Shown here piece by piece: positions 11,794 to 44,849 of a DNA stretch of 64,000 nt (position 1 is its first letter; the number at the start of each line of letters is the position of its first letter). Location of the stretch: positions 96,001 to 160,000 of the forward strand of contig JBFWNL010000002.1 in the NCBI GenBank assembly GCA_050251055.1, written 5' to 3'. The notes beneath the pieces were generated by a model, which was not told the DNA's origin, made no database searches, and saw only the letters and a program-made list of their open reading frames with translations. The stretch is from Bacteriovoracia bacterium. GTDB taxonomy: Bacteria; Bdellovibrionota; UBA1018; JBFWNL01. Position numbers and translations under genes: made by a program.

Positions 11794-11917
11794 ATTAATT
11801 TTATAGACATTTTCGATACCAACCGGAAGTGTCCGAAAGGTTATCCAAAGACGCCTTCAATCGGTGAGAGATTAGCAAATTCCGTGCTGCATCGCAGCGG
11901 CAATGCCCGCACTTGCC

Positions 11918-37903: not shown

Positions 37904-39332
37904 GGCCTATCACGCAGAAGTCATCTACGACGTGCTTTACGGGTTCATCCGCCTCACCGAATGGGAGGCCCGCATCGTCAATTCGCCGTTTTTCCAGCGC
38001 CTGCGCTGGATCAAGCAGCTAGGTTTCTCAAACTACATCTTCCCCGGCGCCGAACACAGCCGCTTCGCGCACGTGATTGGGGTCATGCATTCCATGGAGC
38101 AAATGTTGCGCGCCTTGGGCCTGGCGGTTCCCGAAAGCGAGCTCTTTGACCCGCGCCGCCGCTCGCCTGCCGCGCTCCTGCACCGCAGCCTTCGCATCGC
38201 CGCGCTCTTGCACGACATCGGTACTTTCCCGTTCAGCCACGCCATTGAGCACTCCTACATTCGGCACGGCACCCACCACCGGCCCCGGCCTAAGGGACGA
38301 GGCGCGCGGACACCCAAGGATCTCCCCAACTCGCACGAACATCTGGGCTCGTTCATCATCAAGAACACCGACTACGAAGGCGGCATCACCCGCGTGCTGA
38401 ACGATTTCGGCCTAGATACGGGGCTCATCTCTAAAATCATCAAGGGCGACTCCCCTGACTTTATCGCCAACCAGCTCATGCACTCGGACCTGGACGCCGA
38501 CCGCATGGACTATCTGATTCGGGACGCCCACTACACCGGGATTAAATACGGCCAGTTCGACCGTGACTACATCCTGGCAAACCTTACTACCTATCCCGTG
38601 GGCAAAGGCCAGCGGGGCTTTGGCGTACGCGAAAATGCCACTCACGCGGTGGAGGACTTCCTCATTGCCCGCTTCGGCTGGTACAGCCAGATCATCCGCA
38701 ACCCCGACTCCGCCAAGTTCGACATCATCGCCTCGCATATCGCCCAGCACCTGCTCGAAATCGACGCCATCCACCAATTCCAGGATCTGCTCGAAATGGT
38801 CGCCACCGGCGATGAACGTTTTTTCTGGTGGAATGACACCTATTTCATCACGCGCTGCCAGGAGGTTCGCTATCGCCAACGCATCAAATCGCCCGCCGTC
38901 TCCGAGCTGATCGAGATGCTACTCTTTCGTCGTCCACCCAAGACCATCCAGCACCCCGTTTTCGCCCATCGGCTGATGCAAATGAAGACCGAGGCCGAAG
39001 CGCGCCGCCGGTGGTTAGCCGAGATCAAAGACGTCATCGGCCACTTCAACCGCACCCTCGCCAAGCATGGCACCGGCCAGGAATGGATCCTGGACGACGT
39101 CCAGCACAATCAGGTGGGTTTTTCGAGCCGCCTGCCTACGGAATCCGCGCCGGGCACGCAAGCCTGGGGACGAGATCCCATCAAGGTCGTGGACAAACAG
39201 GGTAAGGCCCGCCTGCTGGTACAATCCGAAAACAGCCTGATGAAATACCTGTATGGCGTGGAAAACTTCTTCCCCAGTGTCTACGCCAACGATGCGGCGA
39301 TTACGCTACTGAAGAAACGTCGCCTCATTTAG
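37884..39332 (+). CDS. HD-domain phosphohydrolase, SAMHD1/YdhJ-like dNTP triphosphohydrolase family
   Basis: FQRLRWIKQLG, PGAEHSRFAH, LLHDIG.FPFSH, HE and DLDADRMDYL.RD motifs. Confidence 0.92.
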   Translation: MSQKKTKAYHAEVIYDVLYGFIRLTEWEARIVNSPFFQRLRWIKQLGFSNYIFPGAEHSRFAHVIGVMHSMEQMLRALGLAVPESELFDPRRRSPAALLHRSLRIAALLHDIGTFPFSHAIEHSYIRHGTHHRPRPKGRGARTPKDLPNSHEHLGSFIIKNTDYEGGITRVLNDFGLDTGLISKIIKGDSPDFIANQLMHSDLDADRMDYLIRDAHYTGIKYGQFDRDYILANLTTYPVGKGQRGFGVRENATHAVEDFLIARFGWYSQIIRNPDSAKFDIIASHIAQHLLEIDAIHQFQDLLEMVATGDERFFWWNDTYFITRCQEVRYRQRIKSPAVSELIEMLLFRRPPKTIQHPVFAHRLMQMKTEAEARRRWLAEIKDVIGHFNRTLAKHGTGQEWILDDVQHNQVGFSSRLPTESAPGTQAWGRDPIKVVDKQGKARLLVQSENSLMKYLYGVENFFPSVYANDAAITLLKKRRLI

Positions 39333-39344
39333 AGGAAATCCGAC

Positions 39345-40103
39345 CTAATAGAGACAGTTCGCGCGACCCTGGTCATTCGACTTTAACGTGCGCTTGATCT
39401 CGCCGTCGCGACCATTTGGAAAGCTCACCTGCGGGTACATCACGGCATCGAAGTAGGCGGAATTCAAACCAGCGGCATTACAGCTCGGCACCCCATTGCC
39501 CGCCGTGCCTTCGCAGCTGTGGTTCAGCCCTAGCAAGTGACCCATCTCATGGAGGGCGATCGATTGCAGATCCGGAACCTGGGGACTGCCCGCCACGAAA
39601 AAATTGTCATAATTGAGTTCCATCACCGCCGTGTAAAGGTCCTTGAGCGGTTCGGAATCCACGGTACAAAAGCTCGTAAGGGCCACGATCTGCGCTTGGT
39701 GATTCCAAGTGCTACGCTTATAGATCACGACCTGTCCCGTGAAGCCCGTCGTGGTTAAAATATGGTTCGTGCAAATCGAACCCGGAAATGGCTGGGAACT
39801 GATTCGAGGCGAACCCGTGCTACCGTAATCCAGCACGGTGAGATTTTTACTGCCCGTATAGAACTGGTTCCAGGTATCGGCGGCAGCGGCAAATGCGTTA
39901 ATCTCGGCGCTCGTGAAATTGGATCCCTGAAAGAACGCAATGGGGACCGAGAGCAGAGGCCAGTGACCCGAGAGCGTACCGGCCTGTTCGTCTGGCAACG
40001 CGCAGTTCTTCTGGAATTCCGTACTTTTGGAACACGAACCCACGAGCAGTACTACTGCCAGGCAGAAAATCGCTTTGAAGGAACTGCGTCGGCTAAAACG
40101 CAA
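39345..40103 (-). CDS. Matrixin (M10) metalloprotease lipoprotein
   Basis: Lipobox VGSC, HEMGHLLGLNH and Met-turn AVMYP. Confidence 0.88.
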   Translation of the reverse strand: MRFSRRSSFKAIFCLAVVLLVGSCSKSTEFQKNCALPDEQAGTLSGHWPLLSVPIAFFQGSNFTSAEINAFAAAADTWNQFYTGSKNLTVLDYGSTGSPRISSQPFPGSICTNHILTTTGFTGQVVIYKRSTWNHQAQIVALTSFCTVDSEPLKDLYTAVMELNYDNFFVAGSPQVPDLQSIALHEMGHLLGLNHSCEGTAGNGVPSCNAAGLNSAYFDAVMYPQVSFPNGRDGEIKRTLKSNDQGRANCLY

Positions 40104-40152
40104 CTATCTATCCCCTTAAAATCATTAATTTATTCAAACATAATCAACTAAA

Positions 40153-40179
40153 TCAGTTGAACTCAACAACGTCCGATGT
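40153..40179 (+). promoter_or_regulatory. Possible sigma-28-type promoter
   Basis: TCAG-N15-TCCGATGT in an AT-rich intergenic region. Confidence 0.3.
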
Positions 40180-40251
40180 TATTAGTATAGTATTAATCGG
40201 CAGAAGCCGCAAGTTTTTGAAATGGTTTTAGAATCTGGTATGCTGCGCGAC

Positions 40252-41028
40252 ATGCCACAGGAAAAACAACAGCTTAAGACCGTCGTAATCACCGGCGGGG
40301 CCACCGGAATTGGGTTTGAAACCGCTCGACTGCTCCTCGACACCAAAAAGTATCGCCTGGCCCTCGTGGGACGAAACCGCGATCACCTGGAAACGGCGGC
40401 CACGAAGCTGGGTGGATCTTCAGATATCCTAAGTGTGCACGTTTGCGATCTGAGCGATTCCTCGCAGATCAAAAAGACGGCGGAAAAAATCATCGGCAGC
40501 TACAAAGGCATTTACGGACTCGTCAATAACGCTGGCATCTATCCTTTCGGAGATCTCAAAACCACGACCGAAAAAGCGTGGGATGAGACGATGAACGTGA
40601 ATTTGAAGTCCGTTTATCTGCTCACCCAAGCGCTACTCCCGACGATGTCGAAAAACCCGGGCGGCGGGCGAATCGTCAATGTCTCCTCCACGGCCGGAAT
40701 ATTGCCGAATCACCATGCATTGGCGTACTCCGTTTCCAAGGCCGCGCTGATCAATTTATCGCGGTCGCTCGCGAAGGAACTGGGCAAGGACAACATTACC
40801 GTAAATTGCATTTGCCCCGGTATCGTGCGCTCGCCGCTGCACGAGGCGTATCACCAGTCGCGCTGGGAGGTGGAGCAGTTCTACGCCAAGCGTGGCGCCG
40901 CCTACCCGCTCGGGCGCGTGGGCGATCCAGTGGATATCGCCGGCGCCATCCGCTACTTCCTCAGCGAAGAAGCCGCATGGGTGACCGGCGACGTTATGAT
41001 CATCGACGGTGGTCGACTGCTGACGTAG
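40252..41028 (+). CDS. SDR family oxidoreductase
   Basis: TGGATGIG, VNNAG, YSVSK, ICPG and TGDVMIIDGG motifs. Confidence 0.95.
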   Translation: MPQEKQQLKTVVITGGATGIGFETARLLLDTKKYRLALVGRNRDHLETAATKLGGSSDILSVHVCDLSDSSQIKKTAEKIIGSYKGIYGLVNNAGIYPFGDLKTTTEKAWDETMNVNLKSVYLLTQALLPTMSKNPGGGRIVNVSSTAGILPNHHALAYSVSKAALINLSRSLAKELGKDNITVNCICPGIVRSPLHEAYHQSRWEVEQFYAKRGAAYPLGRVGDPVDIAGAIRYFLSEEAAWVTGDVMIIDGGRLLT

Positions 41029-41064
41029 ACCGTAAAGACTGCGAAAGATTCGGAAAAAATAGGC

Positions 41065-41104
41065 AAAAAAAATGGCGGCCGATCTCGGGGAAGGGCCGCC
41101 ATTT
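41065..41104 (-). terminator. Intrinsic terminator oriented on the minus strand (may also stop the SDR transcript)
   Basis: AAATGGCGGCC-loop-GGCCGCCATTT, with a U8 tract on the minus strand. Confidence 0.85.
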
Positions 41105-41158
41105 ACTTCATTTGGACCCTCACACGTGCTCTCGGGGGAAGATCCAACTTTAAGGCTA
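41065..41158 (-). ncRNA. Candidate ~95-nt small regulatory RNA divergent from the LysR gene
   Basis: -35 TTCAGC / 17 bp / -10 TATTCC; two hairpins, both with CCCCGAGA in the loop; own terminator; no meaningful ORF. Confidence 0.6.
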
Positions 41159-41213
41159 GGCCTAGGAATAGTCGGTCCGGCCTAAAAGCTGAAATACATT
41201 AATCAAATGCTCG

Positions 41214-41232
41214 TTATAGAATTTTTCTATAA
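41214..41232. promoter_or_regulatory. LysR-type binding site (T-N11-A palindrome)
   Basis: TTATAGAA-ttt-TTCTATAA, 20 bp upstream of the LysR ATG. Confidence 0.75.
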
Positions 41233-41251
41233 TAGGCGCTATAAGCCCGGC

Positions 41252-42133
41252 ATGGCCCTGAATTACCTCGACTGCTTCGTCTCCCTTGCCAAACACCTGA
41301 GCTTCACCGCGACGGCCAAGGAGATGGGGATCACTCAACCTAGCGTGTCGCGTCAAATTCGCCTCCTAGAAGAACAACTGGGCGTGCAGCTCTTTCGGCG
41401 CGACCGCCAGGCCGTCCAACTCACTCCCGCCGGTAAAGAACTACGTGCCGAGATCACTCCGATGCTCGAGGGGATCCGCGCCACTCTCGAAACCTCACGG
41501 GAAAAATCGCGCAAGATCGAAGGCTCGCTCGCATTCTCGTGCCTGCCCGAAATCGGGCAATACTATTTCATGCATCACTTACTGGAATTCCAGGCCCAGC
41601 ATCCGCAGATCGACCTGCACGTGAGGTATTGCTTGGAACCCGAGATCATCGCCGGGTTAAAAAACGGAGAAATCGACCTAGGTGTCATCACCCAACCACT
41701 CATTAGCGAAAGCATTCGCTCTTACCGCTTGATCGACGAACATCCCGTGCTCGTCACCCGCACGCAAAACCAAAGGCCCTTCACCGATCCGGCCGAAGCC
41801 CATTTCGTAGGATACGAGCGGACCGACGCGCTACTGGCCGACTTCCTCAAAAAAACGTTCAAGCCATCCCAGGTCTCTAAAATTCGCCGGCTTTCCACCG
41901 TCAATTCCTATAAATCGATCCTCGAAACCCTGCTGGCCCGCGACTGCTACGCCGTATTGCCGTTTTTCGGCGTCCGTGAGCTGGTTGAGACTAAACGCTT
42001 GAAAATCGTCTCCCAGAGGGATGTCCGGCACCCGCTCTACCTCATCTATCTCGAGAGCAACCACGCCTCGCTTAAAAACGAGGCATTTCGCAAATTCCTG
42101 ATCCAGAAGTGCAAATCCGAGCAGTTGGAGTAA
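41252..42133 (+). CDS. LysR family transcriptional regulator
   Basis: SFTATAKEMGITQPSVSRQIRLLEEQLGVQLF.R HTH plus substrate-binding domain. Confidence 0.96.
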   Translation: MALNYLDCFVSLAKHLSFTATAKEMGITQPSVSRQIRLLEEQLGVQLFRRDRQAVQLTPAGKELRAEITPMLEGIRATLETSREKSRKIEGSLAFSCLPEIGQYYFMHHLLEFQAQHPQIDLHVRYCLEPEIIAGLKNGEIDLGVITQPLISESIRSYRLIDEHPVLVTRTQNQRPFTDPAEAHFVGYERTDALLADFLKKTFKPSQVSKIRRLSTVNSYKSILETLLARDCYAVLPFFGVRELVETKRLKIVSQRDVRHPLYLIYLESNHASLKNEAFRKFLIQKCKSEQLE

Positions 42134-42210
42134 AAAAGCATCCAATTTAGACGCATTGCGTTATTTTTTAAGCCATGGTATTTACCCCGGAAAGGAGAAC
42201 TTCGGTGAAA

Positions 42211-42936
42211 ATGCATCCTCTGGTTACCTTTGTTATCTTCTCCCTGCTCGGCGCCGCTCCGGCATCGGCAAACCCCACGCCCGGTCCGGTGGAAAAAGGC
42301 GCGGTCTACGCCGCCTATTACAATATCTATGTCGAGTCCCTTTCGATCCTGAAATTTCAACTGCCCGCGGAAGGCGCGACGACGTTGAAGGTGGAAAAAG
42401 TGGACGGCCAATTCTCGCCCGCTCAGAAGAAACTGCTCGTCGACCACTGGGACGCGATCACTTCGGCGATCCTGAAGGACTCGACGAAATCAGCGGAATC
42501 GATCGAGCTTTCCACGCAGAGCTTGGTCCCCGAACGCCGATACACGACGCATTTCCTGATGAGCTGGATTCGCTCAGAGCTCACCGAGGAAGAAGCCGAA
42601 CGACTGGCGCTTCCCGCCGCGGCAGAGGCTAAAGTCCAGACCCCGCATCTTCCCGCGCGTCGACTGAAGCATAATTTGAAGTGGTTTAACTTCACCGCCT
42701 TCGATGAAATCGAATCCGGATCCGGGAATTTCCGGATCAAGTTCTTGGACTCCTCGTATTACGGTGGAAACTACCGTAGTTCGTATACGGTGAGCCAGAC
42801 GTTCTTCCGGAATCTATTGAAACTGCGGCAAATGCCGGATGAGTCTGAAGAAACCCTGGCCGTCCCGAGCGACCTGTTCCCCAAGTACGACGGCGACGAG
42901 GACCATGACGACCGCTCAGGGAGCACCTACCCCTAA
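42211..42936 (+). CDS. Secreted hypothetical protein
   Basis: Signal peptide ending ASA; AGGAG upstream. Confidence 0.65.
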   Translation: MHPLVTFVIFSLLGAAPASANPTPGPVEKGAVYAAYYNIYVESLSILKFQLPAEGATTLKVEKVDGQFSPAQKKLLVDHWDAITSAILKDSTKSAESIELSTQSLVPERRYTTHFLMSWIRSELTEEEAERLALPAAAEAKVQTPHLPARRLKHNLKWFNFTAFDEIESGSGNFRIKFLDSSYYGGNYRSSYTVSQTFFRNLLKLRQMPDESEETLAVPSDLFPKYDGDEDHDDRSGSTYP

Positions 42937-42954
42937 CGATCTCGCCTCGTGGGA

Positions 42955-44849
<1,895 letters not shown>

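Follow-up and report, generated by a model that had tools for sequence, protein, structure and literature searches.

A candidate small RNA divergent from a LysR-type regulator gene in a Bacteriovoracia bacterium

The gap upstream of a gene for a LysR-family regulator (lysR) in a Bacteriovoracia bacterium contains the sequence features of a small RNA gene, located on the strand opposite to both of its neighbours. The gap is 223 bp in size (41029-41251) and separates a plus-strand gene for an SDR oxidoreductase from lysR, likewise on the plus strand, in the 64,000-nucleotide stretch of DNA that was analysed here (contig C2:96001-160000; this whole stretch is referred to as the window, and positions are those of the window unless a contig is named). 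The genome is 3.77 Mb in size with 58% G+C, is 93.5% complete and is the only representative of its genus, and of its family, among the genomes compared. We give about an even chance to the reading that the gap encodes a functional, unannotated minus-strand small RNA (sRNA) that is linked to the LysR protein and acts against Shine-Dalgarno sequences in an RsaE-like manner. According to this reading, transcription away from lysR would yield a stand-alone, non-coding RNA some 93-125 nt in length, starting between about 41186 and about 41158 and ending near 41065-41068 at an intrinsic terminator. The RNA would offer the motif CUUCCCC(C)GAGA twice, in the loop of a first hairpin and in the unusually large loop of the terminator, and these loops would pair antisense with G-rich ribosome-binding sites and block translation initiation, probably independently of Hfq since no Hfq gene was found. 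Its predicted targets are an Exo_endo_phos_3 (EEP) nuclease, the only S1/P1 nuclease of the genome and the best type I phosphodiesterase/nucleotide pyrophosphatase (NPP); hydrolases of nucleic acids and nucleotides are a class of enzymes that is usually secreted. The LysR protein would bind a palindrome in the gap and most likely control its own promoter as well as that of the divergent RNA.

A first-pass annotation of this DNA described two minus-strand hairpins with their loops and a run of eight U residues, all of which are present on direct reading of the sequence (Table 1). In the terminator, 8 of the 11 pairs in the stem (AAATGGCGGCC/GGCCGCCATTT) are G-C, the loop is CUUCCCCGAGAUC (41093-41081), and the U8 corresponds to A8 on the plus strand; a genome-wide hairpin scan assigned it a free energy (dG) of -19.3 kcal/mol and a U-run of 8. 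Hairpin 1 has a 16-nt loop, CCCCGAGAGCACGUGU, and a stem in which two of the 10 pairs are G-U on the minus strand, corresponding to C-A mismatches on the plus strand; its energy is -13.9 kcal/mol on the minus strand versus -9.8 kcal/mol on the plus strand. The third hairpin, with -14.9 kcal/mol on the plus strand and -13.5 kcal/mol on the minus strand, prefers neither strand, and could be either the 5' part of the RNA or promoter or activator-site DNA. For the 111 nt of 41055-41165 as a whole, the minus-strand fold reached -40.7 kcal/mol (z = -4.14), which was equalled by none of 200 shuffled sequences, and the plus-strand fold -38.0 kcal/mol (z = -2.64), which was equalled by one of 200.

The twofold occurrence of CUUCCCC(C)GAGA, also reported in the first-pass annotation, was confirmed, with one copy per loop and the longer repeat differing by one inserted C. 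The two copies contain an exact direct repeat of 8 nt, TCTCGGGG (41083-41090 and 41130-41137), and the word CCCCGAGA is found in both loop 1 and loop 2. Taken alone, the twin motif is no more than suggestive.

Table 1. Coordinates of features in and around the gap upstream of lysR, and of genes with a start-proximal complement to the loops
Feature	Position	Strand	Details
SDR oxidoreductase gene	40222-41028	+	co-directional neighbour upstream of the gap
Intrinsic terminator (hairpin 2)	41065-41104	-	11-bp stem, arms 41104-41094 and 41080-41070; 13-nt loop; U8 41072-41065
Twin motif copy 2, CUUCCCCGAGA	41083-41093	-	entirely within the terminator loop
Hairpin 1	41112-41147	-	10-bp stem UUGGAUCUUC/GAGGGUCCAA, arms 41147-41138 and 41121-41112
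Twin motif copy 1, CUUCCCCCGAGA	41130-41141	-	end of the 5' arm of hairpin 1 and start of loop 1
Third hairpin, imperfect, or palindromic stretch	41149-41190	no strand	between hairpin 1 and the box
First-pass candidate promoter	41165-41193	-	start near 41158, giving an RNA of ~93 nt
Alternative candidate promoter	41193-41221	-	TTCTAT (41221-41216, distal half of the box), 17-nt spacer, TGTATT (41198-41193)
Candidate LysR-type box	41214-41232	no strand	perfect 8-3-8 palindrome TTATAGAA-TTT-TTCTATAA, contains T-N11-A
Perfect TATAAT, likely -10 of lysR	41228-41233	+	inside the box, 19 nt before the lysR ATG
LysR-family regulator gene, 293 aa	41252-42133	+	Pfam HTH_1 1.9e-22, LysR_substrate 9.3e-27
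Exo_endo_phos_3 nuclease gene	C1:288231-289373		UCUCGGGG near start; only member of the Pfam family in the genome
S1/P1 nuclease gene	C7:109723-110754		UCUCGGGG near start; only member of the Pfam family in the genome
NPP lipoprotein gene	C7:99984-101285		UCUCGGGG near start; best of 4 family members
FAD/NAD oxidoreductase gene			fourth gene with UCUCGGGG near start

The strength and direction of the terminator set it apart from most hairpins of its kind in the genome. For this comparison, we scanned the genome for hairpins followed by a U-tract and related them to genes from a crude caller of our own, which yielded 3225 open reading frames (ORFs) at 87% coverage and start codons of the same crude quality. 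Under loose criteria the scan returned 275 sites, including 146 within genes, 93 correctly placed behind a co-oriented gene and 35 orphans. The strong class (dG <= -17.3, U-run >= 6) comprised 50 terminators. A co-oriented gene ended shortly before 39 of them, 5 fell within crude gene calls, and the site in the lysR gap was one of 6 orphans; one of these six is the reverse face of a two-way terminator. Since 39 of the 50 sit properly behind a gene, hairpins of such strength mostly mark real transcript ends, and the site in the gap is one of about five strong terminators in the genome without a gene to terminate. As in stand-alone sRNA genes, it is not attributable to any upstream co-oriented gene and lies on the strand opposite to both neighbours. 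On the plus strand, the tail after the same hairpin is AUUUACUUCA, in which the U-tract is interrupted and accounts for 5 U in the first 8 bases. Had the hairpin been selected solely to end the SDR transcript, the uninterrupted U-tract would be expected on the plus strand and not, as here, on the minus strand. The hairpin can probably serve termination in both directions.

The perfect T-N11-A palindrome that had been proposed as the LysR box was also verified: its arms (41214-41221 and 41225-41232) are 100% complementary across the 3-nt spacer, with the T-N11-A at 41216-41228. The perfect box occurs once in 3.77 Mb, and four other genomic sites resemble it at three mismatches. An orthologous lysR in another genome of the comparison (G331) carries the sequence TTATAGAAAAATTCTATGA, an 18/19 match to the box, at -15 of its ATG. 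The palindrome is thus very probably the binding site of this LysR protein. As in known divergent LysR-sRNA modules, the dyad T-N11-A box lies in the spacer that lysR shares with the candidate RNA gene, and the absence of a divergent protein gene beside lysR, remarked upon previously, was borne out, the upstream SDR gene being co-directional. The start of lysR was corrected from ATG 41207 in the ORF list to ATG 41252, because, counted from that position, the HTH_1 domain covers residues 3-62 and the alignments with five relatives begin at residue 1. The likely -10 element of lysR lies within the box, which points to autoregulation; it has no good -35 element and does not appear in the output of a promoter scan. 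The nearest other box-like site in the window, TTATAGACATTTTCGATAC (11801-11819), has three mismatches, lies between convergent genes and is probably due to chance.

The minus-strand promoter proposed in the first-pass annotation held up in part. Its elements, TTCAGC (41193-41188) and TATTCC (41170-41165), are present with a spacer of 17 nt, but each matches only 3 of the 6 positions of the sigma-70 consensus; TATTCC is without the final T, and the sigma-70 consensus may not be that of this lineage. Relative to the start predicted from this promoter, the box centre (41223) falls at about -65, which is the classical LysR geometry, and it is from this distance between the box and a guessed start that we infer control of the RNA by LysR. 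An alternative promoter that overlaps the box would start the RNA near 41186 and give it a length of about 120 nt; it too is a weak match, put forward because its geometry is analogous to that of a promoter-like TTGAAT-18-TATATT overlapping a palindrome at the orthologous locus of G005. Inspection by eye revealed no sigma-54 promoter of the form GG-N10-GC with TTGC.

The 8-mer UCUCGGGG, which is complementary to the loops, is present in 122 copies in the genome. A search for targets containing this word, as advised in the first-pass annotation, recovered four genes in which it is start-proximal, here defined as lying no more than 40 nt ahead of a called start or 60 nt past it, and three of the four encode nucleic-acid or nucleotide hydrolases (Table 1). 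In these three genes, contiguous helices of 13, 12 and 11 bp can be formed with loop 1 or loop 2, each with one G-U pair and located between -18 and -5 before the AUG. The candidate thus combines, in silico, the two traits expected of an RsaE/RoxS-like RNA, a repeated C-rich word in unpaired regions and complementary G-rich ribosome-binding sites, and repression of the three hydrolase genes would be its predicted effect. The chance that three of four random genes belong to a six-gene class is about 3e-8 (4 x (6/3225)^3), and it stays below 1e-3 if the class is enlarged to 30 genes and a hundred classes are allowed for. Perfect complements to 10 nt of the loop regions within -30 to +30 of a start were identified for 11 genes, as compared to a mean of 4.2 for shuffled seeds, of which 0.3% of 300 reached 11 genes. 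This count mostly reflects the anti-Shine-Dalgarno-like character of the loops, GGGGG and GGGAAGG being common ribosome-binding sites in this genome. Duplex prediction with the full RNA was discarded, as it gave meaningless long-loop duplexes. The Hfq family had no match in the 93.5%-complete genome, which contains one gene for CsrA (C14:55710-55868).

Upstream of their start codons, the three hydrolase genes share the sequence UCUCGGGGG(G), which ends 5-8 nt before the AUG (C1:289374-289392, C7:110755-110773 and C7:101286-101306). Whatever recognises this sequence, the three genes may form a post-transcriptional regulon.

The element does not belong to a dispersed family. A REP-like repeat, which the first-pass annotation had raised as an objection to its own proposal, can be set aside, since the element has one copy in the 3.77-Mb genome. 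Three further copies of the 11-mer CTTCCCCGAGA are all located inside ORFs of 265-1118 codons and were rejected as sibling RNAs. The Rfam search that had been called for produced only a chance match to HIV-1_SD inside the SDR gene when 40000-42500 was searched at E values up to 10, and no match at gathering scores in the whole window for models including GcvB (RF00022), OxyS (RF00035) and RsaE. A protein gene at the candidate locus is unlikely: the sole small minus-strand ORF confined to the gap is a 14-codon frame with a TTG start that runs through hairpin 1, a small protein that we rejected, and the other small minus-strand frames are one of 64 codons that starts inside lysR and one of 23 codons that lies wholly inside it. 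The titles and opening lines of abstracts in the literature yielded no LysR-linked sRNA in Bdellovibrio-like bacteria.

The search for orthologues of the LysR protein covered the order (116 genomes), the class (127 genomes) and a sample of 401 genomes from the phylum. Relatives were recovered only in G082 (51%), G076 (48-58%, split over two contigs), G005 (42%), G331 (41%) and G294 (39%), and in each of the five cases the best hit was reciprocal, with a wide margin. Searches of public genome contigs and public metagenome contigs added five distant loci (26-60% over fragments) and three fragments, respectively, none of which is orthologous. None of the NCBIfam subfamily cut-offs was reached by the protein: the best score was 113.7 bits for LysR_Sec_metab, against a cut-off of 250, and the scores for GcvA (101.9 vs 288 bits) and OxyR (66.4 vs 329 bits) identify it as an orthologue of neither.

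The gene neighbourhoods around the lysR orthologues are different in every genome, and several of the loci nevertheless carry structured sequences on the strand opposite to lysR. The G005 locus (L020), where the upstream gene is co-directional with lysR, has a 19-bp hairpin with four G-U pairs and the tail GUUUUUCU on the anti-lysR strand (1696-1749), which is an orphan terminator and is more stable on that strand than on the lysR strand (-31.2 vs -24.3 kcal/mol). About 145 nt upstream of this hairpin is the TTGAAT-18-TATATT sequence mentioned above, a good promoter-like match that overlaps the palindrome GATTCAATTTTGAATC. The candidate RNA of about 145 nt so delimited contains the C-rich stretches CCCCCUUCCC and ACCCCA. 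G082 has a hairpin followed by UUUUU on the anti-lysR strand; at the same locus (L019), a promoter-like TTTACG-17-TATAAA is found next to lysR, and the ~1.4 kb upstream of lysR holds ORFs of 90-216 aa that match no Pfam family and seem not to be coding. In G076, the anti-lysR strand forms two GC-rich hairpins, the second followed by UUUCUGCUUUC, which stop about 25 nt short of the ATG of a divergent gene for a DUF2914 membrane protein, and in G331 the box faces a divergent ferredoxin-like gene, so called from a 2Fe-2S_thioredx match below the Pfam cut-off (17.2 vs 24.8 bits). By analogy, these loci are compatible with the idea that members of this LysR subfamily have long driven a structured transcript divergent from their own gene.

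The last two loci bear on another explanation, namely that the candidate RNA is a leftover 5' leader or attenuator whose protein gene, divergent from lysR and under LysR control, has been lost in this lineage, with a terminator that now only keeps the orphaned transcript from running antisense into the SDR gene; the RNA might then be made and have no role in trans. We regard this as quite unlikely. The divergent genes in G076 and G331 and the turnover of neighbourhoods among the orthologues speak for such a history, whereas the gap has no alignable similarity to the leaders in G076 and G331 (Smith-Waterman scores within those of shuffled sequences; 16 bits with a covariance model), and no coding remnant is visible, the minus-strand frames of the gap being just the 14-codon one and the 64-codon one that starts inside lysR. 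Nor would decay be expected to retain two loop words that match the ribosome-binding sites of a coherent set of genes.

A number of observations weigh against a functional sRNA, several of which concern its expression and its structure. A scan of both strands of 40500-41800 for promoters gave no promoter-like site, a search for RNA sequencing runs for 38000-44000 returned none, and the box may serve only autoregulation or the regulation of a unit made up of lysR and the 253-aa gene behind it (orf253). Among the 58 terminator-like hairpins that the loose criteria placed between tandem genes, 38 were proper and 20 had their U-tract on the non-coding strand, and the SDR transcript probably also stops, less efficiently, at the hairpin in the gap, with the tail AUUUACUUCAUUU. 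When the 143-nt region was shuffled 5000 times with its dinucleotides preserved, a repeat as long as the twin motif, allowing one indel, turned up in 135 cases (2.7%).

Others concern the targets. The hydrolases were grouped post hoc, on the basis of crude start calls. Of the 11 genes with seed matches, the 8 that remain are unrelated, encoding a creatininase, RecR, an outer-membrane barrel protein, SpoVR and four proteins without a Pfam match, and several of these eight matches involve bases that would be engaged in the stems. Across 3215 start regions, the loops gave duplex energies no better than those of reversed seeds, and UCUC precedes 3 of 276 GGGGG ribosome-binding sites, compared to 6 for each of the top prefixes. 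None of 10 NPP orthologues in the order has UCUCGGGG at its start, so that the pairing, if real, must be lineage-specific like the RNA. Queries with the other target proteins were similarly sparse, the S1/P1 nuclease having no match in G005, G082 and G076 and the EEP nuclease matching only in G076 (31%); for NPP a match was found in G082, the start region of which does not match the candidate RNA of that genome.

The remainder concern conservation. A blastn search with the gap in 40 relatives gave one chance match on an A-tract (E 0.004), and the regions upstream of the five lysR orthologues align no better than shuffled controls, with the exception of the box in G331. Covariation among these upstream regions, which the first-pass annotation had put forward as a check, was thus not to be had, none of the five orthologous loci providing an alignable homologue. 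The two hairpins were also turned into a covariance model, for which the one sequence available, that of the window, was entered twice. Within the order (116 genomes), its matches were confined to ordinary gene-end terminators: 11 other genomes were matched at E values up to 1, and in the 7 genomes that were inspected, most matches were at or adjoining the end of a co-oriented ORF and none was beside a lysR orthologue. With filters off, the best match of the model at the five orthologous loci was a weak one of 16 bits in G076, and G005 was unmatched. Four orthologous loci that cannot be aligned offer no statistical test of a recurring architecture.

Much of this would fit a two-way terminator surrounded by incidental structure, an explanation that we find rather doubtful and still the most serious of those that dispense with the RNA. 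Hairpin 2 would then end the SDR transcript, the A-tract ahead of it would read as U8 on the other strand by coincidence, hairpin 1 and the repeat would be chance or neutral, the box would autoregulate lysR or the lysR-orf253 unit and do nothing else, and there would be no functional minus-strand RNA. The hairpin does lie 41 nt past the SDR stop codon, with 5 U in the first 8 bases of its plus-strand tail, and the box does overlap the TATAAT of lysR; this explanation is further favoured by the frequency of U-tracts on the non-coding strand between tandem genes under loose criteria, by the absence of a promoter consensus in the scan, by conservation that is not demonstrable in the relatives searched and by the recurrence of the twin motif in shuffled sequences. 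It leaves unaccounted for, on the other hand, that it is the minus strand which has the unbroken U-tract and the plus strand the interrupted one, that just 6 of the 50 strong terminators are orphans, that hairpin 1 is more stable on the minus strand, that G005 has the same inverted arrangement with its four G-U pairs, and that three of the four start-proximal complements to the loop word fall in one rare functional class.

It is also conceivable, and in our view highly improbable, that the functional strand is the plus strand. In this case, the G-rich loops GAUCUCGGGGAAG and CUCUCGGGGGAAG, contained in the 3' untranslated region of the SDR transcript or in read-through RNA, would mimic the ribosome-binding sites of the nucleases and act as a decoy for whatever binds there, for instance CsrA or another RNA. 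CsrA recognises GGA in hairpin loops and is encoded in the genome, several GGA triplets are located in or beside the loops on the plus strand, which folds better than its shuffled versions (z = -2.64), and GGGAUC is present in the start regions of two of the targets, the S1/P1 and NPP genes. However, hairpin 1 is downstream of the plus-strand terminator and would be present only in read-through RNA, where it has its two C-A mismatches; the Exo_endo_phos_3 site is without GGA, the number of GGA triplets is by estimate near the expectation from composition, and the strong U8 is on the opposite strand.

Returning to the minus-strand RNA, its interpretation as a trans-acting sRNA, first advanced in the earlier annotation, is partly supported by the single copy, the direction and strength of the terminator, the strand preference of hairpin 1, the box and the targets; the promoter is a weak part of it. 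A broader scheme can be drawn, which we offer as speculative: the LysR sensor and the divergent twin-loop RNA may constitute a switch, responsive to a small molecule, that turns translation of the S1/P1, EEP and NPP genes off or on. The regulon would be lineage-specific, with the RNA seed and the three ribosome-binding sites having co-evolved, and the RNA in G005 would imply that the pairing of LysR with an RNA is old and that the RNA itself is quickly replaced.

Downstream of lysR, the stop codon is followed by just a weak 4-bp hairpin and UAUUUUUU (~42150-42169), and then by the 253-aa gene (42175-42936), which has no Pfam or NCBIfam match. This gene may be co-transcribed with lysR and could be a protein-coding target of the regulator. 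It converges with a minus-strand gene for acetyl-CoA synthetase (acs), from which it is separated by 18 nt (42936-42955) with no terminator-like fold (z = 0.76). Read-through from acs, which has no hairpin at its end, was considered as a client of the minus-strand terminator and seems a remote prospect. Four other strong orphan terminators, at C6:189864-189901 (+), C2:36765-36798 (+), C2:89558-89587 (-) and C4:100956-100979 (-), have dG <= -17.6 and U-runs >= 6 with no co-oriented gene upstream, and may likewise belong to unannotated small RNAs or small genes.

Known systems offer parallels to both the genetic layout and the proposed mechanism. OxyR and OxyS, like GcvA and GcvB, are encoded by a LysR-type activator gene and a divergent small RNA gene, and GcvB uses a G/U-rich single-stranded seed together with Hfq. 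The closest genetic parallel is gcvA-gcvB of E. coli and relatives (PMC1557403), which has in common with the candidate a LysR gene, a dyad box in the spacer and a short, terminator-bounded divergent transcript in place of a divergent protein gene. Unlike GcvB and OxyS, the RNA of the lysR gap has no sequence or structure match in Rfam, and its regulator is an orthologue of neither GcvA nor OxyR. It also differs from GcvB in having C-rich loop seeds in a genome where no Hfq gene was found, and activation by LysR is in this case a prediction.

The closest mechanistic parallel is RsaE/RoxS, the control of which is exerted by a two-component system or by Rex, whereas the regulator next to the RNA of the lysR gap is a LysR protein. 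The likeness lies in two copies of a C-rich word of about 10 nt, unpaired and predicted to bind G-rich ribosome-binding sites, in an organism in which Hfq has no recognised role. In Firmicutes, RsaE/RoxS is outlined as having two duplicated C-rich motifs that pair with G-rich Shine-Dalgarno regions (PMC6158497). There is no homology between the two, the Rfam model for RsaE being unmatched, and the phylum is a different one; here, moreover, one copy of the motif lies within the terminator loop, and the candidate targets are nucleic-acid hydrolases rather than genes of central metabolism. A third comparison is with VtlR/LsrB and the AbcR sRNAs of Rhizobiales, in which a LysR-type regulator is encoded beside the sRNAs that it activates and C/U-rich loops occlude ribosome-binding sites; the AbcR RNAs depend on Hfq, are unrelated in sequence to the candidate and belong to another lineage.

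To our knowledge, LysR-sRNA pairs are known within Proteobacteria, and small RNAs are almost unexplored in this mostly uncultured class. If the sRNA reading is correct, the lysR gap would encode a new RNA family in a circuit consisting of one sensor protein, one RNA with two identical seeds and three predicted targets of the same class. It would place a LysR-sRNA pair outside Proteobacteria, and would mean that Hfq-free pairing of C-rich loops with ribosome-binding sites recurs in another phylum. Systems of this kind are already familiar, so that what is gained would be one more example, specific to this lineage, together with a possible handle on nuclease control, rather than a new principle.

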